This document shows positions 3,345 to 57,467 of a stretch of DNA of 64,000 bases, piece after piece; positions within the stretch are counted from its first letter, which is position 1, and each line of letters opens with the position of its first letter. A program made the position numbers and the translations under genes. The notes beneath the pieces were generated by a model. It saw nothing but the letters and a program-made list of their open reading frames with translations, made no database searches and was not told the DNA's origin. This DNA comes from an uncultured Thermodesulfobacteriota bacterium. Its GTDB lineage: Bacteria > Desulfobacterota > GWC2-55-46 > JADFVP01. The stretch is taken from the NCBI GenBank assembly GCA_964472295.1, contig CAYYJQ010000009.1, positions 244-64,243 of the forward strand, given 5' to 3'.

Positions 3345-3588
3345 AAAGACAAAAAAAAGAAAAGAAGAAAGGCGGGAGGGAAAGAGGGGGACGGCCTTGC
3401 CTGCAAGGAGACAATTAGGAAAGTCTGATTAATTCAGACTTTCCTGCGGCCCATGGATGTGCCGCCATTTTCAGGGCTGTAAGCCATTGAAAATGTGAGG
3501 GAAAGGGAAACCGCGTTTTTCCTTTCCCATCTCTCCTTAATTCAGGGACGAATTAAGGAGAGGTTCCTTAAGAGACAAAAAATATTCA

Positions 3589-3612
3589 ACTTTCTTTTGA
3601 AAAATGGAAAGT
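3589..3612. repeat. AT-rich palindrome family, copy P1 (imperfect): ACTTTCTTTTGAAAAATGGAAAGT, followed by TTTTGATTGG.
   Basis: It shares ACTTTCTTTT...AAAGT arms with six other copies (see findings). It lies in the noncoding gap between motB and the pilZ gene. Confidence 0.5.
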
Positions 3613-3751
3613 GTTTTGATTGGAAAGAGATGTCCTGCTTTACTCCTGGAGGACAGGGCCAAAAAAAAAAGAACTTCGCGGCCCAGGATACTGAGTCAAA
3701 GAAAACCAATCAGAAGATTAAAAACAAGAAAGTAAGACTAAAAAAGACCTA

Positions 3752-3965
3752 TCCCCACATACCCCTTGCGCCCCTTGCGCCCTGCCCTGTCCCCCTGGCC
3801 CGCTGACCGCACAAACCCTGCTATCCCCCTGCACCACTCCCCCCACTCCCTCATGCCCCCCTGCCCCTTTGCCCCCTATGCCTTGTGTGTGCACCCTCCC
3901 TGCCAGTGTGTCCTCCTTTTCCCCCTTTTCCCCCCCTGTCCCCCTTTAGGCCCCCTGGCCCCTAC
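3752..3965. repeat. ~210-bp low-complexity tract that is C-rich on the plus strand, so G-run-rich on the sense strand of the upstream minus gene. It carries GGGGCAAGGGGC-type motifs.
   Basis: Read directly: ccccttgcgccccttgcgccctgccctgtccccctggccc...cccccctgtccccctttaggccccctggcccc. It lies immediately 3' of the PilZ gene stop. No credible ORF. Confidence 0.6.
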
Positions 3966-4555
3966 TTGGCTCTGCCGGCGGCCTTCTTGCCCGACCTCAG
4001 CATCCTTCTCTGCCAGGCGAAGATATAGCGCACTATCCTCTCTCTCACGCGCTCGTCAATATCAACGAACTGTATCCCTACCTTGTATCCACCGTCGATA
4101 TTCTCGCAGGTCCAGACCACCTCGCCCATTACCTCGAGGTCCTGGGTCTGGTCCGGCAGGAAGAGGCGTATAACGAGCCTGTCGCCCTCGGCAAAGTCCT
4201 TGTTGCAGAGTATCTTGAGGCCCCCGCCGCTTATGTCCTCGATGCGGGCCTCGGGTATCTCGAAGCACCTCTCGGCCACGGTCTGGCTCATAAGGGCCTT
4301 GAGCCTCTGGTTTATCTCAAGGAGAAGGGAATACATCTCAGGGTTATCAGAGGAGGATATGGACTCCATCTTTCTTGAAAAGTGCTTGAGTTCGCGTATG
4401 TTCAGTGCGCTGTCCACGATATTGACGCCCTGCCTTGCGACATAGTATACAGGGATGCTGTCCTCAATTCGCACATACTCGCGGCTGTTTGAGATCATAC
4501 CAACCATGTACATTACCTCTTCGTTTACAGCGTCTTTATCTTCAATATCAGCCAT
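3962..4555 (-). CDS. PilZ-domain (c-di-GMP binding) protein, possibly a YcgR/flagellar-brake type.
   Basis: The DISGGG (DxSxGG) PilZ signature is present, within 'EDISGGGLKILCNKDFAEGDRLVIRL'. I chose the start at MADIEDKD (4555) so it does not overlap the upstream gene ending at 4548. It lies at the end of the flagellar cluster. Confidence 0.55.
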   Translation of the reverse strand: MADIEDKDAVNEEVMYMVGMISNSREYVRIEDSIPVYYVARQGVNIVDSALNIRELKHFSRKMESISSSDNPEMYSLLLEINQRLKALMSQTVAERCFEIPEARIEDISGGGLKILCNKDFAEGDRLVIRLFLPDQTQDLEVMGEVVWTCENIDGGYKVGIQFVDIDERVRERIVRYIFAWQRRMLRSGKKAAGRAK

Positions 4556-8570: not shown

Positions 8571-10490
8571 TCACTTCTCGTTAACAACGGCGCGCCCGCC
8601 GCTGTCCGGGCCGTCAACGAGCCCGCGCGCCACTTCGAGTCCGTGACCTATCATGGGCTTAAAGAGAAGGCACATCTTCCTTACCTCGCTGTAAGTGCGA
8701 ATTGTCCTCTCAATGTCCTTCTCGAACTGTATCCTCGCGGACCCGTCCTCTTCCTCGCGGAGGTAGCCCTTCAGGTCATAGGTATACTCCACAAGCGCCT
8801 CCCAGAGGAACGAGACCTTGAGGGCGGCTTTGAAAAGTTTTTTTTCCTTTTTCCTTATCCTCTCTATGGGTCCTGAGAGTTCAAGAGAGAGTCCTTTTTC
8901 GAGAAAGGCCCTCTTAAGCCTTCCCGCCTCTCTGATAATCTCCGAGGAGAGGTTCAGGACAAGCCCCACGTGTTTTTCAAGTCCCCTGAAGGCCTCCAGA
9001 AGACCGCCCGCGTTGACATCGGGGCGCACGGCCCCGGCCTCGTCCAGTATCTTCTCGACTGGAACCGGCCCCTTCAAGTGTTGCTCAATGACCTCGGCAA
9101 GGGGCAGGTGCTCCATGCCCTTTATATAAGCGCCGCCCTCTGTTGAGTTGTAGACGCGGAGGCCGGGAAACTGCTCCTTCAGAAGGACCATGTACCTCTC
9201 GAACCACTGGTGAAATGTCACCCAGTCGTATTTACTGGCAACGGGCCGCCCGTCAAGGCCTGTAAGCCACTGGAGTTTATGGGTCATGGTGCGCCGGTGG
9301 CCTGAGATGTAGTGTTCCCGCACCAGAATAAGCCCCTTCTCCTCGTCTATCTCCACCCTCTGCCTGTCATAGACGCCTCCCTCGGCGTGGCTCTGTCCGT
9401 TCTCAAAGGCAAGGTCCTGACCAATGAAGATAATGGGGTCGCAACCGAATGTGACGCCCATGTCGAACATGGCCGTGGTTACGGAGCCGCCTATGGATAC
9501 AAAGGAACTGCTCCCCCAGAGCCCGGCCTGCTCAAGGCTGAGGGCGATGTAGGGGCTGTAGAAGATGAACTTTCCACGGGCCCGTCTTCTGAACATCTCA
9601 GGGTGAGAGACCTCGGAGAGTATGAGGCGTATATTCTCATCGGCCACGCCTCCGTCGAAGTACTCCTTGAGGTCCACCTTTTCTCCGGCTATGACGGCGT
9701 GGGGGGTAACGCCGTACTTGAGGAGGCTCTTGTAGGCCGTGATGGCCGATACGATAAAGGCCCTGTCCTTTATGCCGGAAAGTAGGGCGGCGTTCTTTTT
9801 TAGCGACGGTCCGGCCCCGACTATAACAAGGGGCACGCCCCTGAGCCTGTTATTCAGGACGCCGACAGATGGATAGGCGGCGAAATTCTCGAGGTTTGCG
9901 AAGTAGTTCTTCAGCCAGTCAAGGCGCGAGTCTATCTCTGTCCTTATGCCGACCTTCTGGGACGTATGGGCGTTCTCGACCTTTATGACAAAGTTACGGA
10001 GTTCCTCGGGAAAGGCAAGGCTGTAGGCAAGGGTATGATAGCCGAGGATATTATCGAGTCCATCGGTAAAACGCTGGACCCAGGCGATGAAGGGGCCTAT
10101 GTAGTTGGCAAGGAATACTCCGGGCAGGGAGAGTTCACGGCTCAGGTCAACTTCCATGAGCACGCCCTTTAGTATCTCCATGGAGGGCTCAAGGACAAAG
10201 ACCTTCTTCATGCCCTTCTTGAGGAGCGTACGGAGGAGATAGGCGCAGCCAAGACCAAAGATGACAACGCAGTCAGGTTTTTTCTTGAGTATTTCCCCTG
10301 CCTGAACCTCGGCCTCTTTCCATGGGGCGTACTGGCTGTTAAATAAACGGCCCCTGTACGAGAGGACTGGTTCGCCCTTCTTTGATACGCCAAGTTTAAC
10401 GGCCTTCTCAATATCAAAGGCCCTCAGCCTCTCGGCAAGGATGCTGTCTTTTTTCGCGATTGCCGTGATGTTTTTTTCAAATATTTTCAT
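8571..10490 (-). CDS. maf: Motility accessory factor (Maf) family protein. Maf proteins act as flagellin nonulosonic-acid glycosyltransferases in Campylobacter and Helicobacter.
   Basis: 639 aa. The central region matches the Maf/DUF115 (MptE-like) fold, with LNNRLRGVPLVIVGAGPSLKKN... and GDxxAAxN-type segments. It is co-located with the pse genes and flagellin. I take the start as the ATG at 10490, with GGAG 6 nt upstream; the track began at a TTG. Confidence 0.6.
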   Translation of the reverse strand: MKIFEKNITAIAKKDSILAERLRAFDIEKAVKLGVSKKGEPVLSYRGRLFNSQYAPWKEAEVQAGEILKKKPDCVVIFGLGCAYLLRTLLKKGMKKVFVLEPSMEILKGVLMEVDLSRELSLPGVFLANYIGPFIAWVQRFTDGLDNILGYHTLAYSLAFPEELRNFVIKVENAHTSQKVGIRTEIDSRLDWLKNYFANLENFAAYPSVGVLNNRLRGVPLVIVGAGPSLKKNAALLSGIKDRAFIVSAITAYKSLLKYGVTPHAVIAGEKVDLKEYFDGGVADENIRLILSEVSHPEMFRRRARGKFIFYSPYIALSLEQAGLWGSSSFVSIGGSVTTAMFDMGVTFGCDPIIFIGQDLAFENGQSHAEGGVYDRQRVEIDEEKGLILVREHYISGHRRTMTHKLQWLTGLDGRPVASKYDWVTFHQWFERYMVLLKEQFPGLRVYNSTEGGAYIKGMEHLPLAEVIEQHLKGPVPVEKILDEAGAVRPDVNAGGLLEAFRGLEKHVGLVLNLSSEIIREAGRLKRAFLEKGLSLELSGPIERIRKKEKKLFKAALKVSFLWEALVEYTYDLKGYLREEEDGSARIQFEKDIERTIRTYSEVRKMCLLFKPMIGHGLEVARGLVDGPDSGGRAVVNEK

Positions 10491-10805
10491 CAATCACTCC
10501 AACATTTTTTTACCGCGACTCAATGCCCCCCTCTTTTAAGCCGCCACAGAGCCAATAAAAAATATCTTCAATCTCTCCGGCATTTTTTTATCCGCGGCTC
10601 AAAGGCCGGTTCCTTTAAGCCGCGCAAGAGCGGGTAAAAAATCTTGTCAATCACTCCAACATTTTTTTATCCGCGGCTCGATGCCCCCCTCTTTTAAGCC
10701 GCCCCAGAGCGGGTAAAAAATCTCGTCAATCACTCCTATGTTTTTTTGCCCGCACCTTGAAGGTCAGTTCGTTTACGCCGCGCCAGACCCAGTAAGAGGT
10801 GTCGT
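10491..10805. repeat. Tandem direct repeat of period 78-79 bp, 3 full copies plus a degenerate 4th. It starts at the maf start codon and extends into the 3' end of the upstream GH57-like gene.
   Basis: The unit is caatcactcc-aacattttttta-ccgcggctc-Natgcccccctcttttaagccgcc-cagagcgggtaaaaaatct-gt. Copies begin at 10491, 10569, 10648 and 10727. Each carries T7-8 and A6-7 runs, and R1 and R3 carry C7 runs. The SD-like GGAGTGATTGA of maf is reiterated in every unit. Confidence 0.8.
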
Positions 10806-17430: not shown

Positions 17431-18642
17431 TTAACTGCCTTGCATAGACCTCTCAAGCCCCACGGCCCCGTTGCCAAAGTTGCCAAAGTTAATAGATACC
17501 CTGCCCCCTTTCCTGCCAAGCGCTGTTATGGCCGCGTTTATATCTTGAAGTTCAAAGGAACGTCCCTCGGCAGTATCGAGTTCCACAAGGCCCTGCTCAT
17601 GAAGCCCCAGTATCCATGGTATGGCAAGAGAGGGGTTTGACGATCCGTATAGCGAGCCCAGGAGTCTCTTCTCAAGGTGAAAGTCCACGGCAGGGAGGGT
17701 GAGGTCCTGAAGGGGGTGGGGCGAGCCCACCATGACTACCGTGCCTCCCCTTCGAGTCGCTTCCAGTGAAGACCGCACCGTCTCACCAGTGGCAACACAG
17801 TCAAATGCAATGTCCACGCCAATGCCGCCTGTAAGTTGCAATATCTCGTTCCTATCAATGCGTTCCGCGTAGTGGTCAACGCCATTCTTATTCCACCTGC
17901 TCCTCTCGCGCTCAACGAGCATGACCATGCCAGCGCCCCTGTGCCTCAGTGCCTCCACAACCGCGCGCCCAACGTTCCCCCCGCCAACAACAAGTGCCCT
18001 CTCACCCCCTCTCATGTATGGAGCGGCTGTGCGGAAGACAGCCCCAAAGGCAGTTACAACAGGGCAGCCCGCAAGGGCGGCCTCTTCTGGACCAAGGCCA
18101 TCCGGGACCTTGACACAGCCCGTCCTGTATACGACGGTATACTCACTGAAGGACGATACGCCGTTAAAATGGAAAATTACGCCCCCGTCTTCGCCCCCTC
18201 CGCTCCCTTTGGCCCCTTTGCCCCCCTTGGCCCCCTTGGCCCCCTTGCCAAGTCCGCCATCTTTAAACCTTGTTGTCCCGTCGGGAAGAAGCCCCCTGCC
18301 CCGTGGCCAGGCAATGGAACTGCATAATTGAGTCTCGCCTCGGGCGCAAAAGTAGCACCTCCCGCAGAAGGCCGCCCAACTGAGGGCCACGCGCTGGCCC
18401 GGCCTTAGGTCATGGACACCAGCGCCTGTCTCCACCACCGTGCCGACTCCCTCGTGGCCCAGGACAAGGGGCATCTCATACCTTGTGTGGCCGCTAATGG
18501 CGTTGAGGTCGCTCCTGCAGAGCCCGGCTGTCTCCATCTTCACAAGGACCTCTTCAGGTCCCGGCGGGGCGAGAGTAATCTCTCTAACCTCAAGGGGCGT
18601 GTCTTTTCTTGTGAGCACTGCGGCCCTTGTCTCTATGGCCAA
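17431..18642 (-). CDS. Zinc-dependent alcohol dehydrogenase (MDR family) carrying an in-frame Gly-Lys-rich insertion (GKGAKGAKGGKGAKGSGGGEDGG).
   Basis: LCRSDLNAISGH...GHEGVGTV...CGRCYFCARGETQLC are ADH Zn motifs. The insertion at 18170-18260 is encoded by the same GGGGCAAGGGGC repeat seen in intergenic tracts. Confidence 0.7.
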   Translation of the reverse strand: MAIETRAAVLTRKDTPLEVREITLAPPGPEEVLVKMETAGLCRSDLNAISGHTRYEMPLVLGHEGVGTVVETGAGVHDLRPGQRVALSWAAFCGRCYFCARGETQLCSSIAWPRGRGLLPDGTTRFKDGGLGKGAKGAKGGKGAKGSGGGEDGGVIFHFNGVSSFSEYTVVYRTGCVKVPDGLGPEEAALAGCPVVTAFGAVFRTAAPYMRGGERALVVGGGNVGRAVVEALRHRGAGMVMLVERERSRWNKNGVDHYAERIDRNEILQLTGGIGVDIAFDCVATGETVRSSLEATRRGGTVVMVGSPHPLQDLTLPAVDFHLEKRLLGSLYGSSNPSLAIPWILGLHEQGLVELDTAEGRSFELQDINAAITALGRKGGRVSINFGNFGNGAVGLERSMQGS

Positions 18643-19995: not shown

Positions 19996-21032
19996 TGGTC
20001 CTCCTTTATGTCCTTTACTCCAAAGATAACGGCCTCGCGTCCTATGCCGTTCTCAGCCATAAGGGCGTACATCTCGTCCTTGAAGGCCCGAAGGCGCTTT
20101 TGGGATAACATGATGTCGAGCCTTGCGCGCATATGGTGGCACCTTCTCCCAAGGGCGTCGTCACCAACGTAGTCCTCTCCCATGAGGAGAAAAAAATCCA
20201 TGGGAAAGGTGGAAGTTGTCTTTAATATTGAGAACCCCGCCCTCTCCATGAGGGCCTTTATTGAGTCAAAGGAGAAATAATTTATATGGTGAGGCACTGC
20301 GACCCAGTAATCTTCGTAACCCCGTCTTTCGCGAAGCGCCTCCTGCACGGGACTGAAGTCATTTGGCACGACAACACAGGCAATGCCGCCGGGTTCAAGG
20401 AGCCCAAAGGCGCCGGAGAGGACCTTTTGGGGGTCGCGCACATGCTCGAGGACCTCGGAGATATGTACGGCGTGGAATGAGCGCCCCTCTTTTTCAAGGG
20501 CCATTGCGTCAAAAAAGCCCCTTATCACCTCCACGCCGCTGGAAAGGGCCGTCCTTGCGGCCACTTTTGATGGCTCCACGCCAAGGCCCTTCCAGCCGCG
20601 CTCCGTGGCGCGTTTCAGAAAAAACCCCGGCCCACAGCCAATATCGAGAAGCCTTCTACTGCCTGCAAAAAGGTTTTTCTCCATGAATTCGAGCCTCTCG
20701 TCAAAGACAGTCTTCCACCACTCTTCGTCCTCGCGGACGCGCTCTATGAAGGCGGGTTTTTCAGAGGTGAAGTACTCGTCCCTGTAAATCCTCTCAAGTT
20801 CTTCTTCCGCTGGAATGGGGTCAATGTGAATAAAACCGCATGGCCGGCAATCAATGACTTCATAGCCGTCCTTTTCCGCAAGGAGAGGCCCTTGATGAAC
20901 GGCCTTGCCATCAAAAAGACGCCCGCTCTCTGCCTCTCTCATGGCCCCCATGCCCTTCTCCCGCCTTGCCTCCGCGCATCCCCTGCCTACCCCGCGCGCG
21001 CCTTTTTCGCACCTTGCCCCACCTGGTCTCAC
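19992..21032 (-). CDS. Class-I SAM-dependent methyltransferase (Methyltransf_23-like) with an N-terminal zinc-ribbon-like CxxC.
   Basis: LLDIGCGPGFFLKRA (motif I) and HAVHISEVLEHVRDP are present. The exact start is uncertain; the first ~30 aa of the ORF may be UTR. Confidence 0.65.
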   Translation of the reverse strand: MRPGGARCEKGARGVGRGCAEARREKGMGAMREAESGRLFDGKAVHQGPLLAEKDGYEVIDCRPCGFIHIDPIPAEEELERIYRDEYFTSEKPAFIERVREDEEWWKTVFDERLEFMEKNLFAGSRRLLDIGCGPGFFLKRATERGWKGLGVEPSKVAARTALSSGVEVIRGFFDAMALEKEGRSFHAVHISEVLEHVRDPQKVLSGAFGLLEPGGIACVVVPNDFSPVQEALRERRGYEDYWVAVPHHINYFSFDSIKALMERAGFSILKTTSTFPMDFFLLMGEDYVGDDALGRRCHHMRARLDIMLSQKRLRAFKDEMYALMAENGIGREAVIFGVKDIKEDQ

Positions 21033-24417: not shown

Positions 24418-25440
24418 TCACCGGTGGGGAAGCCCTGAAAAGGGCATGTCCCCGGCAAGGGATCTAAGATAGCCCTCGTTTCTGATGGTCGATGAATTTA
24501 TCTTTAATAATTCAGGTATTCTGTCAATAAGTTCAAGTATCTCCTCCATATAGAAGACCCTCAGCGGACAGGCAAAACTCTGGAAGACCTTACGGGCAAA
24601 CTCAAGGTCGCGGCCATCGTCCACTGTCCAGCGCATATGGGAGAGGTCTTCTATATTAGGAATGGAACGCACTCTGAACCTCTGCCTGTTTTTCCATATA
24701 TGGGGCGTGACGTGCTCTCTCTCCGAGGGCAGAATTGCTTCTTTAAAGGCACGGTCAAGTGCATGGAAGGTGAAGACCTCTGTGTCGAGGCCATCTGGAA
24801 AGGTTCCGTCAAGGCCCATGTAATCGAGGTCAGGGGCGTTGAGGAACTCCTCGACAACCCTCTCCACAAGTATGGGGTCTATCATGGGGCAATCGGCTGT
24901 AACGCGCACCACGGTTCGTGCTCCATGCTCTTTTGCCGCGCCATGATAGCGGGAGAGCACATCAGAGAGCGCACCCCTGTAAGAGGCCACGCCCTCAGAT
25001 GAGCACCAGCGCGAGATAATGTCATCGGAAGAGTGTGTGCTCGTGGCGACCACTATTTCATCAATGGCCCTTACATACCTCAGGCGGTTTATAACGTGCC
25101 AGAGCATGGGCCGTCCGCAGATTTCCCGCATCACCTTTCCGGGAAGCCTCGTGGAACTCATCCTTGCCTGCACTATGGCGACAACGGGCCTTCGCGGTGT
25201 TTGCGCGCCAAAGGGCCTCTTCGCGCCCTCCGCGCCTCGCGTCCCCCTTCTTGCATACCTCTCTCCCCCTGTCTCCCTATCTCCCATCTCCCCCCTTGGC
25301 CCCGTCGCCCCCATCGCCCCCGTCGCCCCCTCTCCCCCTGTGCCACTCGCCCCCTCTGCGATCTTCAACCCCTTTGCCCCCATCGCCCTCTCTCCCCTTG
25401 GCCCCCCTGGGCGCATGTCTCTCAACATAGGTCCTCCCAC
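24418..25440 (-). CDS. pseF: CMP-pseudaminic acid synthetase / acylneuraminate cytidylyltransferase (PseF-like) with an N-terminal collagen-like Gly-X-Y extension.
   Basis: The core reads VVAIVQARMSSTRLPGKVMREICGRPMLWHVI..., the CMP-NeuAc-synthetase family motif. At least 35-90 aa of Gly-rich sequence precede it (GAKGLKIAEGASGTGGEGATGAMGATGPRGEMGDRETGGERYARRGTRGAEGAKRPFG). The true start lies somewhere between 25440 and the MGDRE codon. Confidence 0.65.
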   Translation of the reverse strand: MGGPMLRDMRPGGPRGERAMGAKGLKIAEGASGTGGEGATGAMGATGPRGEMGDRETGGERYARRGTRGAEGAKRPFGAQTPRRPVVAIVQARMSSTRLPGKVMREICGRPMLWHVINRLRYVRAIDEIVVATSTHSSDDIISRWCSSEGVASYRGALSDVLSRYHGAAKEHGARTVVRVTADCPMIDPILVERVVEEFLNAPDLDYMGLDGTFPDGLDTEVFTFHALDRAFKEAILPSEREHVTPHIWKNRQRFRVRSIPNIEDLSHMRWTVDDGRDLEFARKVFQSFACPLRVFYMEEILELIDRIPELLKINSSTIRNEGYLRSLAGDMPFSGLPHR

Positions 25441-28687: not shown

Positions 28688-28930
28688 TGGAAAATCAAGG
28701 GGCCATTAAGGCGCAACACCCCCCTGAAGGCGCGTAGCCTCGGGAAAAAATGCGGTGTGACAAAAAAATGACAGGATATTGGAGTGTAAAAAAAAGATTA
28801 ACGAGAAAGGGAAAGCGGAAAAGAATCAACTGCCGTGGATGTAACCTGCCAGCGGCCAATGGCCGGTGTAAGGGAAAAACCCCCTTGAGAGAGACCTTGT
28901 AGAGGAGATAAAAAAAGGGCGTAAAACAAA

Positions 28931-28970
28931 TCCCCGCCCCCCCTGCCCCTACTTGCCCCCTAAGCCCCCT
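28931..28970. repeat. G-run tract on the minus sense strand (GGGGCTTAGGGGGCAAGTAGGGGCAGGGGGGGCGGGG) around the fliW stop codon, overlapping its last ~11 nt.
   Basis: Read directly. Same motif family as 3752-3965. Confidence 0.55.
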
Positions 28971-29457
28971 TTGCGGCGTCCTCACGGGCCGCGTCAAGAC
29001 CCGCAAGTTCCACGGCAAACCGGCACTCGTATTCGTCTCTGTCTATTATGCACTGCATGGCGAGCATGGACCCGGTATTCAGCAAGACCGGCGCCTTGAG
29101 GTTCAGGCTCACGCTACCCTTTACCTCCGAGGCCGATACCATGACAAAGACCACAATGGAATCAACTGAAGAGGCCCCAAGGTCTTGAAGATAATTATCC
29201 CTCAAGGGCACGGTGTACCCTGACTTGAAGAGACGGGGATATGTGAGAAGAAAGGCAACCCCGGGGTCCTCAATGGACTGAAGCCACTTGAAGACCCCGT
29301 CACTGTCATGATCAAGAAGGACAAAATCCCTCAGACCCTCGAAACCGGGCATGCCGCGAACAAGCCGTATCACCTTCGCGCCCTCCACCCGTATCACCCC
29401 AAAACGCGAAGACTCGAACTCAATCATCCCTGCGGAGATCTCATCTCTTTCCCTCAT
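28960..29457 (-). CDS. fliW: Flagellar assembly factor FliW, the CsrA antagonist.
   Basis: 165 aa of DUF180/FliW type (MIEFESSRFGVIRVEG...GMPGFEGLRDFVLL...). It is adjacent to csrA. AAGGAGA lies 9 nt upstream of the ATG at 29457. Confidence 0.75.
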   Translation of the reverse strand: MRERDEISAGMIEFESSRFGVIRVEGAKVIRLVRGMPGFEGLRDFVLLDHDSDGVFKWLQSIEDPGVAFLLTYPRLFKSGYTVPLRDNYLQDLGASSVDSIVVFVMVSASEVKGSVSLNLKAPVLLNTGSMLAMQCIIDRDEYECRFAVELAGLDAAREDAAKGA

Positions 29458-29722: not shown

Positions 29723-29746
29723 GCTTTCTTTTGGAAAAAAGAAAGT
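29723..29746. repeat. AT-rich palindrome family, copy P2: GCTTTCTTTTGGAAAAAAGAAAGT, followed by TTTTTGATTGAAG.
   Basis: It lies 40 nt upstream of the csrA GTG start. Same arms as P3-P7. Confidence 0.6.
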
Positions 29747-29862
29747 TTTTTGATTGAAGCGCATTGTCCCTCTGGTTTTTTGGAACCTGTAGCATAACAG
29801 GCACTTTTCAAAAGTAGAAACATCGCCAGAGAAAACCAATATTCAAAGGTCCTATTTCTCTG

Positions 29863-29942
29863 CCGCCCCCCCACTCAAATCCCCTGTCGCCCCCCCTTTG
29901 GTCCCCCCCATGCCCTCTTGGCCCCCATGCCCCCATGGCCCC
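29863..29942. repeat. G-run tract on the minus sense strand immediately 3' of the flgL stop.
   Basis: On the plus strand: ccgcccccccactcaaatcccctgtcgccccccctttggtcccccccatgccctcttggcccccatgcccccatggcccc. Confidence 0.55.
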
Positions 29943-30823
29943 TAAAGGAAATCAAGGATACTCTGGCGTAGTATCTTTGCCGAGGAGTTCATGGCCGCCT
30001 GAAGGGCCGTGTTTCCAAGTTGAAGTTCGGATATGACCTTCGTAATATCCGCGTCCTCCATATTGGATATGCTTATCCTGAGGTCCAGTTTAAACCTTGA
30101 TATGGCGTCAGCGGCGCTCTTTAGACGAAGCGTCCTTCCGCCCACATCTGAAATTGCGTTGGATATCTGCGTCGAGGCGGTCTCGAGCGATGTTATGGAG
30201 GCCCTGATGCCTGCCGTGTCATTTGCGTCAAGGGCGGTTATCATGTCCGAGACTATCTGAAATACGTCCACACCTCCTCCCGTGCCCTTGAAGACCTTGC
30301 CTCCGTTCATGCCAAGGGTCATGGAACTCTGGTTATTGATGTTTATTACCCTCTCGCCGCTGTCTCCGTTATAGGCGCCCGTGGAGTCAAAGGGCGGCGT
30401 ATCGGTCTTGTTGCCGGCAAAGATGTGCCCGCCCTCGAAACTCGTATCAGCAAGGGTGACAAGGCTTCCAAAGAGGCTCCTGGCCTCTGTCGAGGCGGCC
30501 TTCCTCGACTCGGGGTTGGCCGTCTCCGTGGCGTTGAGCACGGCGAGTTCCTTGAGACGGCCAAGTATGCCGTTACTCTCCGAGAGGGCGTTCTCCGCCA
30601 CACCGAGATAGGACTGGCCAGAGCCTATGTTCCTCTCATACTGCGTAAGTCTCGAGAGGAAGGACTTTGAGTCAAGGAGTTTGCCCACCCGGGCAGGGTC
30701 GTCCGAGGGGGTCGAGAGTTTCTTTCCCGTGGAGAGTTGGCTCTGTGTCTTGAAAAGGGCCTGGTACTGCCGCGTGATGTCGTTCATGTAGGACCGGAAA
30801 AGTATATTACTGGTTACACGCAC
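29942..30823 (-). CDS. flgL: Flagellar hook-associated protein 3 (FlgL).
   Basis: 293 aa. MRVTSNILFRSYMNDITRQYQALFKTQSQLSTGKKLSTPSDDP is the flagellin-like N-terminus typical of FlgL. It follows flgK. Confidence 0.75.
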   Translation of the reverse strand: MRVTSNILFRSYMNDITRQYQALFKTQSQLSTGKKLSTPSDDPARVGKLLDSKSFLSRLTQYERNIGSGQSYLGVAENALSESNGILGRLKELAVLNATETANPESRKAASTEARSLFGSLVTLADTSFEGGHIFAGNKTDTPPFDSTGAYNGDSGERVININNQSSMTLGMNGGKVFKGTGGGVDVFQIVSDMITALDANDTAGIRASITSLETASTQISNAISDVGGRTLRLKSAADAISRFKLDLRISISNMEDADITKVISELQLGNTALQAAMNSSAKILRQSILDFL

Positions 30824-36390: not shown

Positions 36391-36427
36391 TCAGACTTTT
36401 CTCAGAGCAATGGGCCTTCTCCCCCCC

Positions 36428-37216
36428 TTACCTCTTCATTGAGTTAGATGCCTGGAGCATCTCGTCGGCTGTCTGAATGGCCTTGGAGTTTATCTCATAG
36501 GCACGCTGGGCCACTATCATGTCCACCATCTCCTCCACCACGCTCACGTTGGAGGTCTCCACAAAGCCCTGGGCCAGGGTGCCGAGGCCGTCTGTGCCAG
36601 GGGCCGCGGTCACGGCATCGCCTGACGAGGCCGTGGCGGTAAAGAGGTTCTTGCCTATTGGTTTCAGGCCCCCGGGGTTTATGAAACGGGCAAGTTCCAT
36701 GTTGCCAACCTCTGTTGGGGCGCTGGAGCCGGGCTCGGTTACGGAGACTATGCCGTCGGCGCTTATTGTTATGGTAAGGGCCGTGTCGGGTATGCTTATC
36801 TCGGGGGTTACGGTGTATCCATCGGAATTAACGAGTCGCCCGGAACTATCGATCTTGAACTCGCCGTTTCGAGTATAGGCCGTCTCGCCATCAGGTTTGA
36901 GAATCTGAAAGAACCCGGCTCCCTCTACGGCAAGGTCAAGGGGATTTTCCGTCTTCTGGAGGTTACCCTGCGTGAAGAGGTGCTCTGTTGCCACGGTCCT
37001 TACGCCCTGGCCCACGTTAAGCCCTGTTGGGACCACTGTGGAGGGCGAGGAAGAGGCCCCTGCGGAGCGCAGTTCTTCATATAAAAGGTCCTGATAATCG
37101 GGCCGCGACTTCTTGAAGCCAACGGTATTGACGTTGGCAAGGTTATGGGCAATCATGTCCACGTGCAACTGCTGGGCCTCCATGCCCGTGGAGGCCGTCC
37201 ATAGGGCCCTCAGCAT
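36428..37216 (-). CDS. flgG: Flagellar distal rod protein FlgG.
   Basis: MLRALWTASTGMEAQQLHVDMIAHNLANVNTVGFK ... VSVVEEMVDMIVAQRAYEINSKAIQTADEM. 262 aa. Confidence 0.85.
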   Translation of the reverse strand: MLRALWTASTGMEAQQLHVDMIAHNLANVNTVGFKKSRPDYQDLLYEELRSAGASSSPSTVVPTGLNVGQGVRTVATEHLFTQGNLQKTENPLDLAVEGAGFFQILKPDGETAYTRNGEFKIDSSGRLVNSDGYTVTPEISIPDTALTITISADGIVSVTEPGSSAPTEVGNMELARFINPGGLKPIGKNLFTATASSGDAVTAAPGTDGLGTLAQGFVETSNVSVVEEMVDMIVAQRAYEINSKAIQTADEMLQASNSMKR

Positions 37217-38022: not shown

Positions 38023-38278
38023 GTTACACTGTAGAGGGTAGGGGAAAAAACAGGGACCCCTTGAGGAGTCCCTTCATGTGGAGGGAAAAGGGCCGTAAAA
38101 TGAGGATTATCCCGTAATGGACGTATCCTGAACAAGGTAGCGCCTGCGCTGGCCTACGTAGAGAAAGGCCGGCGCCTTGTTGTACGCGGTGAGGAGGCGC
38201 TCCAGGGGCGGCTTGGCAGGGGACAAACCGTTCTGGAAGATTGTGCCTCTTCCCAAGAGAGGAAGGGGCAATTTTTAC

Positions 38279-44522: not shown

Positions 44523-44566
44523 AGCAAAAAAAACGCCCTTTCGCTCCATTGAGCGAAAGGGCGTTT
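44523..44566 (-). terminator. Rho-independent terminator for narK. A 16-bp perfect stem is followed by U8 on the minus strand, and it may also act on plus-strand prmC transcripts.
   Basis: AAACGCCCTTTCGCTC-catt-GAGCGAAAGGGCGTTT, with the A8 run at 44524-44531 giving U8 on the minus-strand RNA. Confidence 0.7.
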
Positions 44567-44648: not shown

Positions 44649-44733
44649 GCCCCATCTCTTTTTACGCCCCTTTGCCCCTTTGTCCCATTGCCCCATATAC
44701 CCCTACACCCCCTTGCCCCTTCTTGCCCCCCTG
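44649..44733. repeat. G-run tract (GGGGCAAGGGG-type) on the minus sense strand immediately 3' of the narK stop.
   Basis: cgccccatctctttttacgcccctttgcccctttgtcccattgccccatatacccctacacccccttgccccttcttgcccccctgcc. Confidence 0.55.
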
Positions 44734-44741
44734 CCGCCAGA

Positions 44742-46717: not shown

Positions 46718-46831
46718 TAGGACACCTCCATAGTTCCCGTTAGTAACAACTTGCCGCCGAGTTCAATCAGGAAAAACCAAAATCCGCGAAACATGGAAAT
46801 GAAAAAGGACTACTAAAAAAAACCTCTAACC

Positions 46832-46930
46832 GTACCCCCTACGTATCCCCCTCCTCCCCACACTCCCCTTCTTACCAATCGCCAACCTTCAATTCGGCCC
46901 CTTCCCAACCCTTGCGCACCCCCCTTCCGC
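46832..46930. repeat. C-rich low-complexity tract on the plus strand (G-runs on the minus strand) upstream of usp.
   Basis: ccgtaccccctacgtatccccctcctccccacactccccttcttacc...ggccccttcccaacccttgcgcaccccccttccgc. Confidence 0.45.
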
Positions 46931-47182
46931 ATCGACTATGTTCAAGATGCACTGAAAGAAACAGATGACAGGACCGAACCACTTGAAATCAGGACGCACC
47001 TGTAGACACGACCCGAAACCTCTATTTAAACAAGACGCCCATATCAGGTTTGAGGAGATTGATATGGTAAATCCAATGTATGTGGCGATTAAATTTATGC
47101 TATTATATCAATAGATTAAATAATGTCAAGTAAAACCATTAATTTTTGCATCATTTTTGATTAACGAGCCATTAATAATTCA

Positions 47183-47395
47183 ATGGCAAGCTATGGGAAG
47201 GGAATGAGGGATGGGGAAATGGGCAGTTTTGTGTCATGCCCGGGACGATATTCGGCAGCCCTCGCTACAGTGGGCCACTCTTGGGAGTTTAAAACGCTTC
47301 ATAATAAGACCTCCTTTTTATGTAGACGTTGGGGTTCAAGTATATTTTACCACACTCAGGGCCTTTTTGGCCCTGAAATCATTTTTTAAAGCGCC
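47183..47395 (+). ncRNA. Candidate small RNA. It is a GGA/G-run-rich transcript with a weak intrinsic terminator, possibly a CsrA-titrating RNA.
   Basis: It is preceded by a ~150-bp AT-rich island (47040-47180). It begins AUGGGAAGGGAAUGAGGGAUGGGGAAAUGGG, with 4 GGA motifs in 30 nt, and carries 2 more (CGGGACG, UGGGAGU). It ends in hairpin CAGGGCC-UUUUU-GGCCCUG followed by aaatcaUUUUUU. Only short, low-quality ORFs overlap it. Confidence 0.25.
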
Positions 47396-47480
47396 CCGGC
47401 CTCCCCCCCCTTTTTTCATGCCCTTTCGCCCCTCCACTCACCTTCCCTAACGCCCCTGTATTCCGTCCCATGGGCCCCTT
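47391..47480. repeat. G-run tract on the minus sense strand immediately 3' of the geranylgeranyl reductase gene.
   Basis: gcgccccggcctccccccccttttttcatgccctttcgcccctccactcaccttccctaacgcccctgtattccgtcccatgggcccc. Confidence 0.5.
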
Positions 47481-49462: not shown

Positions 49463-49587
49463 CGTCGCCTCCTCAAGTATGGCCTGAATTGCCGCCGCAA
49501 GGCTTGAGCGCCGGTTTTGTATTGACTGTCAACGGGTTAAGGCAAACCATCAAACCACTTAATAAGGGGCCTCTCCTGAGAAATCAT

Positions 49588-49650
49588 GCCCCACCCGCGC
49601 CTAACCCCCTCCCACCTTGCCGCCTTTACCGGCCCATGGAATACCCCCCC
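49588..49650. repeat. G-run tract on the minus sense strand immediately 3' of the MidA-like gene.
   Basis: gccccacccgcgcctaaccccctcccaccttgccgcctttaccggcccatggaataccccccccta. Confidence 0.5.
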
Positions 49651-50781
49651 CTAAAGGTAGCGGCTCATGTCACGGAAGGAAAAACCCTTCAATTGAGCGG
49701 CCTCTTCGCCGCCCTTCTCCTGCACAAGGACCTTGAAGGTATCACCCATGCCGCCAGGGGATATAAGGCTGGCGATGGCCCTGTTATGCTCTATCTTCTC
49801 GTAGTCCTTGAGCCCAGCGGCCTCTGTCTCTATTAGTTCCTCAAGGACACCGAGGCCAAGGAGAAAATTCTTCTGAGTCGTAAAACCAGAGAGCCTGAGC
49901 CCAGCCTCATTGCCGCAACGAACAAGGCGCGTAAAATCAATGTGGCTCGTAATGTCCTGCCTGCCTATCTTCTCATAGGGCTCGAAATTGGGCCTGTGGC
50001 GATAGTGGCACATGAGCGTCCCGCCTATCCTGTCAGGGCCGTATAGCTCGCGGGCAGGCAGACCGTAATCTATGGTGATTATAAAGCCCCTCTTGAGTAT
50101 CTCCGCGGCCCGCTCTATCCAGGGGCCGGCCATAAGGTTTACCTCGGCCCTCTGGCCCTCAAGAAGGGTTATGCCGGCATCTCTGAAGTAGTCCGAAAGG
50201 GCTGGGTCCGAGAGCTCACCCTCCACGTCCTTGAGGCGCCCGTACTCACTGCCAACATAAATTTCCCTGAGTTCCCCTTCGCTGAAACGCAGGCGGTGGA
50301 AGGGGAAACTGTCAATCAGTTCGTTGGAGATGATTACGCCGTGCTCCAGGCTCGCGGCCAACGGAAGGTCGCCCTGCCAGGTGACCTTCTCTCTCCTCTC
50401 CCCTTGAAGCCCAGGGTTCCTCTCTACAAGGACAACGCTAATGGCCTCATAAAGCCGAGGGGCAGTCTCCTTGATGGTATCGAGTATCCCCGTGGCCAGG
50501 TGACCCCTTCCTGCCCCGGCCTCTATAAGGACAAAATCATCTGGCGCGCCAAGGGTCTCCCACATCTCCATGATCGAGGCGGCCATAACCCTTGAAAATA
50601 CAGGGCTTACATCTATGCTCGTAATATAATCGCCGCCCTCGCCCCATGGGCCGCGGCTTGATGTGTAATAACCGCCATCTGGCCAGTAGAGCGCAACTTC
50701 CATGAACTCCGCAAAGGTAATGGGGCCTTTTTTCTCAATCCTTCTAAGAATCTCGGCCCTTGGGCCGTCCTTCTCACTCAT
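49651..50781 (-). CDS. MidA/NDUFAF7-family (DUF185) SAM-dependent methyltransferase.
   Basis: ITFAEFMEVALYWPDGGYYTS and FVLIEAGAGRGHLATGIL match the MidA family N-terminal and SAM-binding motifs. 376 aa. Confidence 0.75.
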   Translation of the reverse strand: MSEKDGPRAEILRRIEKKGPITFAEFMEVALYWPDGGYYTSSRGPWGEGGDYITSIDVSPVFSRVMAASIMEMWETLGAPDDFVLIEAGAGRGHLATGILDTIKETAPRLYEAISVVLVERNPGLQGERREKVTWQGDLPLAASLEHGVIISNELIDSFPFHRLRFSEGELREIYVGSEYGRLKDVEGELSDPALSDYFRDAGITLLEGQRAEVNLMAGPWIERAAEILKRGFIITIDYGLPARELYGPDRIGGTLMCHYRHRPNFEPYEKIGRQDITSHIDFTRLVRCGNEAGLRLSGFTTQKNFLLGLGVLEELIETEAAGLKDYEKIEHNRAIASLISPGGMGDTFKVLVQEKGGEEAAQLKGFSFRDMSRYL

Positions 50782-50838
50782 GACAGGGCCTTCCTCGTCA
50801 CTGCCCCCTCTGCCCCTCCCGCGCCAACTGTAACATCC

Positions 50839-51269: not shown

Positions 51270-51299
51270 CTTACTTTCTTTTAGAAAAAAGAAAGTAAG
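51270..51299. repeat. AT-rich palindrome family, copy P3: CTTACTTTCTTTT-AGAA-AAAAGAAAGTAAG, with 13-bp perfect arms. The AAAGAAAACCAAT box follows.
   Basis: Read directly; identical over 48 nt to copy P4. It lies ~125 nt upstream of the aconitase-family gene. Confidence 0.7.
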
Positions 51300-51422
51300 A
51301 CAAAGAAAACCAATAGGAGGCGAGGTTTTTTTGTATCTCTGAGCCGCACCTCCGCCCTACACGGCAGCGCGGTTTTGAAAAAGTAAGACAGGGAAAACCA
51401 ATGGCCCGGACGTGAGTGAAAG

Positions 51423-53369: not shown

Positions 53370-53406
53370 AAAATAAGAAGAAAGAAGAGATAAGAAAAGA
53401 TATTTC

Positions 53407-53436
53407 CTTACTTTCTTTTAGAAAAAAGAAAGTAAG
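53407..53436. repeat. AT-rich palindrome family, copy P4 (identical to P3), followed by ACAAAGAAAACCAAT.
   Basis: It lies ~100 nt upstream of the putative cpgS start. Confidence 0.7.
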
Positions 53437-53533
53437 ACAAAGAAAACCAATGGGTTTTCACTCTACCCTCTCTTTCCTCCTCCCCCAGGGCCTCTCTCTT
53501 GATTTCGACTGACAATCAGTATATGCTCATAAC

Positions 53534-55768: not shown

Positions 55769-55885
55769 ACGACGTATATATTGCGCCAATATTGGTTTTC
55801 TTTGATGTGGTTTCTTTCTGGTAAAGTGTGTCTATTATGCGCCAGGTCCAAAAAATCCAGAGGGACATAACAGCCCAATAAAAAA

Positions 55886-55909
55886 ACTTTCTTTTTTCTA
55901 AAAGAAAGT
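55886..55909. repeat. AT-rich palindrome family, copy P5: ACTTTCTTTT-TTCT-AAAAGAAAGT. A half-site TTTACTTTCTTTTAG lies at 55927-55941 and abuts the mogA SD.
   Basis: Read directly; it lies 45-70 nt upstream of the mogA ATG. Confidence 0.65.
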
Positions 55910-56446: not shown

Positions 56447-56530
56447 GAGAAGAAAGAAGAGAAGAAAAAGATTGAGGAGGGCGGGCTCCGCCCGCAAAAA
56501 GAAAAAACAAAAGAAAAAGAAAGAGAATTT

Positions 56531-56557
56531 CTTACTTTCTTTTAGAAAAAAGAAAGT
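56531..56557. repeat. AT-rich palindrome family, copy P6: CTTACTTTCTTTT-AGAA-AAAAGAAAGT, followed by CTTTTGATTGGG.
   Basis: It lies in the convergent mogA/moaE intergenic region. An AAAGAAAACCAAT box (56639-56652) and a GGGTGGGCTGTGCCCACC hairpin follow. Confidence 0.65.
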
Positions 56558-56731
56558 CTTTTGATTGGGCGGCGAAGCCCATCTCAATTCTTTGGTCATT
56601 ACGCATGACAGGCAAATTTTGCCAGAAAGAAAGCGCGTCAAAGAAAACCAATAGTGGAGTAGGGTGGGCTGTGCCCACCAAAAAAAATATTGCAAGATGG
56701 GTGGAACGTAGTGAAACCCAACAAAATCACC

Positions 56732-57175: not shown

Positions 57176-57188
57176 ACTCTTTCAAGGA

Positions 57189-57390
57189 GGCATTGAGACG
57201 CCTTGCGTGGTCTATATTTGATGACGCATACCATGCGTTACTATTGGTTTTCTTTGACGCAACGTTTTAATGCCGAACCGAACCCATTGAGCCCCATGCT
57301 GTTTTAGTCAAACTGACCAGGGAGCATTGAGACGCCTTGCATGGTCTATATTTGGTGACGCATACCATGCGTTACTATTGGTTTTCTTTG
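57189..57390. repeat. Two ~72-bp direct repeats (57189-57262 and 57316-57390) in the moaD-moaE spacer. Each ends in an inverted AAAGAAAACCAAT box.
   Basis: CATTGAGACGCCTTGCRTGGTCTATATTTGRTGACGCATACCATGCGTTACTATTGGTTTTCTTTG occurs twice with only 2 mismatches. Palindrome P7 follows the second copy. Confidence 0.75.
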
Positions 57391-57392
57391 CT

Positions 57393-57420
57393 CCACTTTC
57401 TTTTTTCTAAAAGAAAGTGG
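57393..57420. repeat. AT-rich palindrome family, copy P7: CCACTTTCTTTT-TTCT-AAAAGAAAGTGG, with 12-bp arms.
   Basis: Read directly; it lies between moaD and moaE. Confidence 0.65.
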
Positions 57421-57467
57421 AAAAAAATACTCTTTTTCTCTTCTCTTTTCTTACTCTTTCCCGTCTT

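Follow-up and report, generated by a model that had tools for sequence, protein, structure and literature searches.

Tandem repeats of quadruplex-forming heptamers were described by Rehm et al. (2015), with the unit GGGAATC in Xanthomonas and GGGGA(C/T)T in Nostoc PCC 7120 (PMC4692102). These repeats, usually of at least four units, are over-represented in non-coding DNA but seldom separate divergent genes; those that follow a gene on its coding strand mostly lie 0 to 50 bp from its stop codon or overlap it (PMC4692102). They accompany genes of all functions, their own function is unknown, and 83% of the X. campestris repeats are found at the same position in X. axonopodis (PMC4692102). In surveys, the quadruplex motifs of bacteria are found mainly close to the starts of genes (PMC12563890).

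Here we describe arrays with traits of this class from a 64,000-nt stretch of bacterial DNA, hereafter the window. Their unit of 8 to 9 nt contains a G-run and is repeated head to tail, at least four runs make up an array, and most of the arrays occupy non-coding DNA 0 to 14 nt from stop codons, not the gaps between divergent genes.

Materials and Methods

The analyzed sequence consisted of the window and 8 kb of the same contig (locus L011), approximately 72 kb with 65 genes. JGI gene calls and Pfam hits on identical metagenome contigs provided an independent gene map, against which gene ends were checked. Long blocks were defined as G4Hunter hits (window 25, threshold of at least 1.5) with a length of at least 45 nt.

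Syntenic loci of related species, at 72 to 87% protein identity, were located through FlgL and NarK homologues. A genome scan with Obg returned three relatives at 75 to 80% identity; the remaining 77 loci, from Moraxella, Psychrobacter, and others, were only distantly related and were used solely as negative background. In a metagenome scan with NeuB, the matches listed had 36 to 56% identity, with no close relatives among them.

The closest genomes by Obg are uncultured Thermodesulfobacteriota or "Deltaproteobacteria" MAGs from vent-type samples. The window has a GC content of 55%, and its amino-acid composition suggests a growth optimum of about 50 °C, a rough value.

Results

Inventory of the G-Run Arrays

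Six G-run tracts placed after stop codons by an earlier reading of the sequence alone are all real, on the minus strand and at the positions it had given (PilZ, fliW, flgL, narK, the reductase gene, and the MidA-like gene; Table 1). Beyond these, arrays also follow the NeuB stop, a 36-aa ORF, and L27, with flgG and a rubredoxin-like gene as minor cases. Five arrays start exactly at the junction of a TAG stop codon with GGGG. The tracts after the reductase and Methyltransf_28 genes are weak and degenerate, with G4Hunter scores of 1.29 and 1.51, respectively. The motif assigned to the tracts held in part: the literal 12-mer GGGGCAAGGGGC has no occurrence, while GGGGCAAAGGGG is present in four copies, and the looser form GGGGC-N1-4-AGGGG has 19 minus-strand matches compared with one on the plus strand.

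Table 1. Positions of the G-run arrays, the box-palindrome copies, and associated features. Coordinates are those of the window unless a related locus is named.
Feature	Position	Strand	Description
PilZ-domain gene array	3747-3966	-	Largest; about 15 runs of at least four G; begins at TAG stop 3962-3964
PilZ array sub-blocks	3908-3966, 3815-3885, 3747-3804	-	Three G-rich blocks, then TCTTTTTT
Zn-alcohol-dehydrogenase in-frame array	18174-18255	-	GGGGCCAAG x6.4, period 9
Methyltransferase N-terminus	20944-21004	-	Weaker G-rich stretch
NeuB/cytidylyltransferase array	25243-25410	-	14 nt past NeuB stop (25422-25424); period 9/18
fliW array	28919-28974	-	Begins at TAG stop; then ATTTGTTTT and CGCCC-T7
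flgL array	29857-29948	-	CATGGGGG units; begins at TAG stop; lies in flgL-csrA spacer
flgG, minor case	36415-36439	-	Lone G7 run fused to TAA stop
narK-type transporter array	44662-44741	-	AAAGGGGC units; 10 nt past TAA stop
narK canonical terminator	44531-44566	bidirectional	16-bp stem, T8; about 100 nt downstream of narK array
36-aa unannotated ORF array	46815-46880 including T8	-	Four runs (46826-46880), 3 nt past stop
FAD-dependent reductase array	47384-47480	-	Degenerate; 3 nt past TGA stop
Methyltransf_28 (MidA-like) array	49583-49653	-	Weak; begins at TAG stop (G8)
Rubredoxin-like gene (42 aa), minor case	50792-50830	-	Two to three runs, about 30 nt past stop
L27 array	64711-64765 (extended coordinates)		Follows L27; just beyond the window
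AG-rich tract	53370-53402		After aconitase gene
AG-rich tract	56447-56530		After mogA
AG-rich tract	57418-57467		After thiS
AG-rich tract	3345-3398		After motB
Box-palindrome copies, window	3590-3709, 29724-29839, 51274-51313, 53411-53450, 56535-56651	-	
Box-palindrome copies, window	55792-55908, 57378-57417	+	
Box-palindrome copies, related loci	L017 9940-10000, L018 175-235, L019 80-140, L181 1228-1241		

The window is identical to contigs of JGI sample 3300023548, including Ga0256727_1000008, and copies with 99.9 to 100% identity are present in four to five other samples. In these, contigs terminate within arrays (L002 at 44692, L004 at 25318, L007 at 3934, and L015 at 3849), as would be seen if the tracts were sequencing or assembly artefacts such as poly-G read errors or chimeric joins. 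However, the arrays are complex sequences rather than homopolymers, those that are covered in the separate JGI and Logan assemblies are identical (the PilZ array is contained in full in L014, and the dehydrogenase insert in L004), and the coding copies keep their reading frame; the tracts are almost certainly not artefacts. The contig ends suggest loss of coverage or breaks in the assembly graph at the arrays, which disrupt short-read assemblies.

Repeat Structure and Predicted Folding

Tandem structure was detected by TRF at every array, with periods of 8 to 9 (and 17 to 19), 2 to 11 copies, and 65 to 100% matches. Overall, G makes up 54% of the arrays, A 23%, C 13%, and T 10%. Of the 67 runs of 4 to 8 G, 50 have an A directly before them and 42 have a C directly after them. 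The TRF unit differs per locus, being CATGGGGG at flgL, GCGAYGGGG at the NeuB junction, AAAGGGGC at narK, GGGGCCAAG in the dehydrogenase, and both GCAGGGGG and CGCAAGGGG at PilZ. One consensus unit for all loci did not emerge; only the core A-G(4-8)-C, plus 1 to 3 nt, is shared, and the longest string common to two loci is 14 nt. These locus-specific units and the shared length of at most 14 nt indicate that each array expanded at its own locus. The lack of common sequence or ends led to the rejection of an origin by copying of a mobile element, and the class of palindromes mobilized by REP/RAYT was set aside on the 14-nt longest shared segment and the non-palindromic nature of the arrays. Searches of the window for Rfam families (at gathering thresholds) and for tRNAs returned zero matches.

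Every array has at least four runs of at least three G, the loops are mostly 2 to 5 nt, and mean G4Hunter scores lie between 1.3 and 1.9. Minimum-energy folds by ViennaRNA with quadruplex energies contain quadruplexes of four to five layers, and on these predictions the arrays are likely quadruplex-competent. At 70 °C the predicted quadruplexes are lost; this temperature extrapolation is regarded as unreliable and does not enter the conclusions.

Position and Strand

Sense-strand runs of at least four G reach 18.8/kb in the first 100 nt past stop codons, compared with 5.1/kb in coding sequence, 4.0/kb antisense, and 7.6/kb upstream of starts. Long blocks numbered 14, while 200 simulated sequences from a first-order Markov model had 2.4 on average and 7 at most, whereas short (25-nt) G4Hunter hits were at chance level (47 vs 56 simulated); only the long arrays are unusual. 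Ten of the 14 long blocks fall within the 9.6 kb of intergenic DNA and four within the 62.5 kb of coding DNA. All ten non-coding blocks are in the sense orientation, and none of the four divergent gaps contains a block of at least 45 nt.

All 14 long blocks are on the minus strand, the plus strand has zero G-run clusters, and arrays mark approximately 7 of 30 minus-strand gene ends but 0 of 11 plus-strand ones. Most genes are on the minus strand, and leading strand and gene strand are confounded in this sample. Such a pattern could arise if the arrays were groups of an architecture-imparting sequence, a polarity motif of the leading strand like KOPS or Chi, whose strand follows replication and not transcription. 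The minus strand is G-rich throughout the window, even under plus-strand genes; the plus-strand gene ends have an array on neither strand; and the string GGGCAGGG within arrays matches GGGNAGGG, the E. coli KOPS consensus. In contrast, known polarity motifs are dispersed single octamers located mostly in coding DNA, not tandem arrays, and the units here vary between loci. The 0 to 14 nt distance from stops would be unexplained, its chance probability being estimated from the counts at far below 1e-6. This makes a polarity motif very unlikely.

A Rho loading (rut) site in the sense transcript was rejected on base composition, as only the antisense strand, at approximately 54% C and 13% G, would qualify. 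An antisense RNA acting as a rut site could keep antisense or convergent transcripts from running into the 3' end of a gene, and two arrays are indeed positioned at convergent junctions, PilZ/MotB and narK/PrmC. Most arrays, though, lie between co-oriented genes, the bidirectional intrinsic terminator at narK already separates the convergent gene from the array, and neither the stop-abutting position nor the in-frame copies would be accounted for. We give this explanation little credence.

TAG is the commonest stop codon in the window and L011 (26 of 65, with 17 of these TAGG), while TGA dominates among the syntenic genes of two related species, where TAG accounts for 4 of 21 and 2 of 17. Five arrays begin with TAG followed directly by GGG, and frame 0 stays open for 12 to 53 codons past the stop, which would be compatible with read-through into Gly/Arg-rich C-terminal tails. 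However, the two other frames are open equally far, giving frame 0 no advantage, a finding on which read-through was rejected. The frequency of TAG in general also makes these junctions less telling, the non-coding units are not divisible by 3, and the stop codon is TAA in narK and TGA in the reductase gene. Read-through is exceedingly improbable.

Arrays within Coding Sequence

Three or four arrays are located in frame within genes. The clearest is that of the alcohol dehydrogenase, which encodes GGLGKGAKGAKGGKGAKGSGGGE, a 23-residue Gly/Lys/Ala insert. This insert is missing in solved homologues: residues 128 and 152, which flank it in the query, align with contiguous positions of 7aas (chain residues 136 and 137).

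At the NeuB/cytidylyltransferase junction, the array lies between a conserved SD/ATG, which overlaps the NeuB stop, and the start of the Pfam domain; both the start and the domain are conserved in two related species. Approximately 75 array codons separate the start from the first Pfam position, and frame 0 is open over 81 codons while both other frames contain stops. The JGI call for this gene, 24418-25425(-), is a 335-aa protein that includes the ~75 low-complexity N-terminal residues, compared with 286 to 292 aa in orthologues, and illustrates how arrays can mislead gene callers. The methyltransferase with the weaker G-rich stretch has a variable N-terminus that is 16 and 36 residues longer than in two orthologues.

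Coding arrays have TRF periods of 9 or 18, whereas non-coding ones mostly have a period of 8, with some of 9 to 19. This difference is the expected product of frame-preserving selection acting on a general expansion process.

Comparison with Related Species

The orthologous sites examined in related species contain no arrays. None was found after flgL in three species (80, 77, and 72% identity), after narK in two (87 and 83% identity), on the 3' side of fliW in two, or at the NeuB/cytidylyltransferase junction in two, and the orthologous sites of flgG and L27 (L017) are also free of them. The three Obg relatives have zero arrays, and approximately 110 kb of related loci contain zero intergenic G-run clusters. 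The arrays are absent from sister species and thus look recently expanded. FlgL (QSILDFL) and FliW (...GA) end in the same last residue in all species compared; with the stop positions unchanged, the arrays were added exactly after the stops.

At these sites, relatives often have one G-run or a pair of them, such as TAAtcccGGGG and TGAtgatGGGGG, and upstream of usp they have two runs (GGGGGGtgaGGGG) compared with four in this species. These runs are plausible seeds for the arrays. Together with the tandem units, predicted folds, and in-frame copies, the absence from relatives supports the third option of the sequence-only reading, a G-quadruplex-forming microsatellite family.

The arrays covered in other samples have identical lengths. 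The populations sampled are 99.9 to 100% identical overall, so this test for length variation has little power. A phase-variable contingency locus was considered and rejected, as most arrays follow stops, the 9-nt coding units keep the frame, and length variation between samples was not seen.

Evidence on 3'-End Formation

The arrays could be selected RNA-level 3' elements in which a quadruplex replaces the terminator hairpin or blocks 3'-to-5' exonucleases. The quadruplex could form in the nascent transcript alone or with the non-template strand, and it could be useful in a warm habitat by outlasting hairpins. The sense-strand position directly past stops suits such a role, as do the at least four runs, short loops, G4Hunter scores, and predicted layered folds. 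T-runs directly follow three arrays (PilZ, FliW, and 46815-46822). Where this species has arrays after narK and fliW, its relatives end these genes with ordinary hairpin-plus-T terminators. Canonical terminators are not enriched in the window: hairpin-plus-T sites numbered 21, 28, and 33, compared with 20.8, 20.0, and 23.1, respectively, in shuffled sequence, and the convincing ones are few (that of narK, 38052-38073, and the box-family palindromes described below). The identity of the arrays between samples also leaves room for such a role. Quadruplex-driven termination at mitochondrial CSB II offers an analogue. In Xanthomonas, transcripts start or stop in quadruplex repeats more often than in control repeats (PMC4692102).

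On the other side, no sister species conserves the arrays, and same-type arrays occur in frame within coding sequence. The classic hairpin terminator that the sequence-only reading had noted after the narK array is present, so that a strong canonical terminator has been retained downstream of an array. The FlgL array is located upstream of csrA-fliW, usually co-transcribed with flgKL, and thus within a probable operon. A U-tract is missing after most arrays. Taken together, a selected 3' element is conceivable but doubtful. It is also rather unlikely that the arrays partly replace hairpin terminators or 3' stabilizers in this moderately thermophilic vent bacterium. If they did, quadruplexes in the nascent RNA, in some cases together with a U-run, would set or shield the 3' ends of approximately a quarter of the transcription units, a factor-independent 3'-end signal undescribed in bacteria and very recent in one lineage.

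Conventional intrinsic terminators formed by the arrays themselves were rejected: the same strand has no complementary C-rich arm, and the terminator scan flags only a weak site beside FliW.

The 764-nt gap between the reductase gene and usp, which has no called gene, contains a perfect sigma-70 consensus at 47129-47102(-), consisting of TTGACA, 16 nt, and TG-TATAAT. Downstream of it are the 36-aa ORF at 46872-46982(-), its four-run array, and a T8 at 46815-46822. This region may encode a small RNA or a small protein, or it may be the leader of usp.

A Second Intergenic Repeat Family

A separate intergenic family is marked by the box TTGGTTTTCTTTG, with 8 copies compared with 0.06 expected by chance. 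On the same strand the box is followed by a palindrome with 13-bp arms, CTTACTTTCTTTT-N4-AAAAGAAAGTAAG, and then by a T/C-rich tail. The distance from box to palindrome is 6 nt in the short form or approximately 83 nt in the long form, which measures 125 nt and shows 78% identity among 4 copies. Only the terminal palindrome has support in the consensus fold of the long form, and the family has no Rfam match. The element is located directly upstream of csrA and mogA and elsewhere points into gene 3' ends; in three related species, the same module is positioned directly upstream of the obg start. It could act as a promoter or 5'-leader module or as a terminator, or it could be MITE-like. On inspection, the box was rejected as a sigma-54 site, the GG-to-GC spacing being 2 nt too short.

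Purine-rich AG tracts had been proposed to end plus-strand genes in place of the G arrays. Such tracts do exist after motB and mogA, but they are not a strand-specific counterpart of the arrays. They lie on the strand opposite the T/C-rich tail or flank of box-palindrome elements, and one follows the minus-strand gene thiS.

Two further repeats were observed. The thiS-moaE spacer contains a 74-nt direct repeat with 94.6% identity (57183-57256 and 57318-57390), each copy of which includes a hairpin (TGACGCATACCATGCGTTA) and has the TTGGTTTTCTTTG box at its end; similar tandem box-containing units are located upstream of obg in the related loci L017 and L018. In the flagellin glycosylation cluster, the spacer that separates the GH57 gene from the MptE-like (Maf-type) gene is taken up by a 79-bp tandem repeat at 10490-10787 (3.3 to 3.8 copies, 77 to 80% identity).

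Discussion

On balance, the arrays are probably the outcome of a recent, slippage-driven expansion in place of quadruplex-prone repeats, species-specific and degenerate, that were kept where they could be tolerated. We infer all three parts of this account: the slippage mechanism, the filtering by tolerance, and the lack of a selected function. Single G-runs near stops, already present in relatives, would expand through replication slippage or unequal exchange, and the resulting arrays would survive only where a quadruplex-prone G-strand does little harm. One such place would be the sense (non-template) strand of the interval from a stop codon to the terminator or the following promoter. Proteins would tolerate arrays at termini or in loops, provided that the array length is a multiple of three. 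Elsewhere, a G-rich sense strand in the 5' UTR or a G-rich template strand would presumably harm expression. As the tolerated stretch is only tens of nt long in relatives, a growing array necessarily adjoins the stop. The arrays would be transcribed as the first part of a 3' UTR or intercistronic spacer, and they are predicted to form stable quadruplexes in the RNA or the non-template DNA. Polymerase pausing, a block to 3' exonucleases, or slowed terminating ribosomes would then be by-products rather than the cause of their existence.

Several points weigh against slippage. Approximately ten independent expansions in one lineage need a cause; candidates for such a burst include a lost quadruplex helicase or mismatch repair, or a new selection. 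The equal array lengths between samples are not what hypermutable repeats would give, though between such similar populations this comparison says little. At least four G-runs with short loops per array would be equally expected from selection for folding, and the lack of enrichment of hairpin-plus-T sites may leave room for another mode of 3'-end formation.

Approximately a quarter of the minus-strand gene ends have strong arrays while sister species have none, which constitutes a natural experiment. It could disclose how such repeats originate, for example through helicase or repair loss or a new selective pressure, and how arrays affect termination, mRNA decay, and terminating ribosomes.

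Among known systems, REP/BIME elements of enterobacteria are likewise repetitive, structure-forming, transcribed, and located just past stop codons. REP/BIME can stabilize upstream mRNA, and Liang, Rudd and Deutscher reportedly found in 2015 that a REP within ~15 nt of a stop interferes with terminating ribosomes. REPs, in contrast to the arrays, are conserved imperfect palindromes mobilized by RAYT transposases; the arrays are not palindromes and share at most 14 nt, and the window contains no RAYT gene. Mitochondrial CSB II, where Wanrooij et al. are said to have demonstrated quadruplex-dependent transcription termination in 2010, resembles the arrays as a non-template G-run element at which an RNA or hybrid quadruplex could stop the polymerase without a hairpin. 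However, it is a single conserved element for primer formation, shown biochemically, whereas the arrays are many and non-conserved. RNA quadruplex motifs, according to what Guo and Bartel are reported to have found in 2016, are generally depleted in bacterial transcripts and harmful when introduced.

The poly-G contingency tracts of Campylobacter flagellar glycosylation genes are also slippage-prone G-runs, and here too such runs occur in a flagellar and flagellin-glycosylation cluster. Contingency tracts, unlike the arrays, are single homopolymers in reading frames or promoters that switch expression on and off. The arrays follow stops or form multi-unit in-frame inserts, and they are also found after genes with housekeeping roles, namely L27, narK, and a methyltransferase gene.

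Of all known systems, the repeats of Xanthomonas and Nostoc come closest; they share with the arrays G-rich tandem units of 6 to 9 nt, quadruplex potential, enrichment in non-coding DNA, a sense position close to stops, and an occurrence beside genes of all functions. The differences lie in the unit, one consensus heptamer with G3-4 there compared with locus-specific units of 8 to 9 nt with G4-8 here; in orientation, since the G-strand of Xanthomonas repeats between aligned genes is sense or antisense about equally often, as opposed to ten sense blocks of ten here; and in conservation, 83% of positions in Xanthomonas compared with none here, where the relatives examined are at a greater distance. 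In-frame coding copies are also prominent here, unlike in Xanthomonas and Nostoc. The arrays are not a proven new terminator; they are the same kind of object as the Xanthomonas and Nostoc repeats in another phylum, Thermodesulfobacteriota, and they extend the unexplained stop-proximal bias of those repeats to a third phylum.
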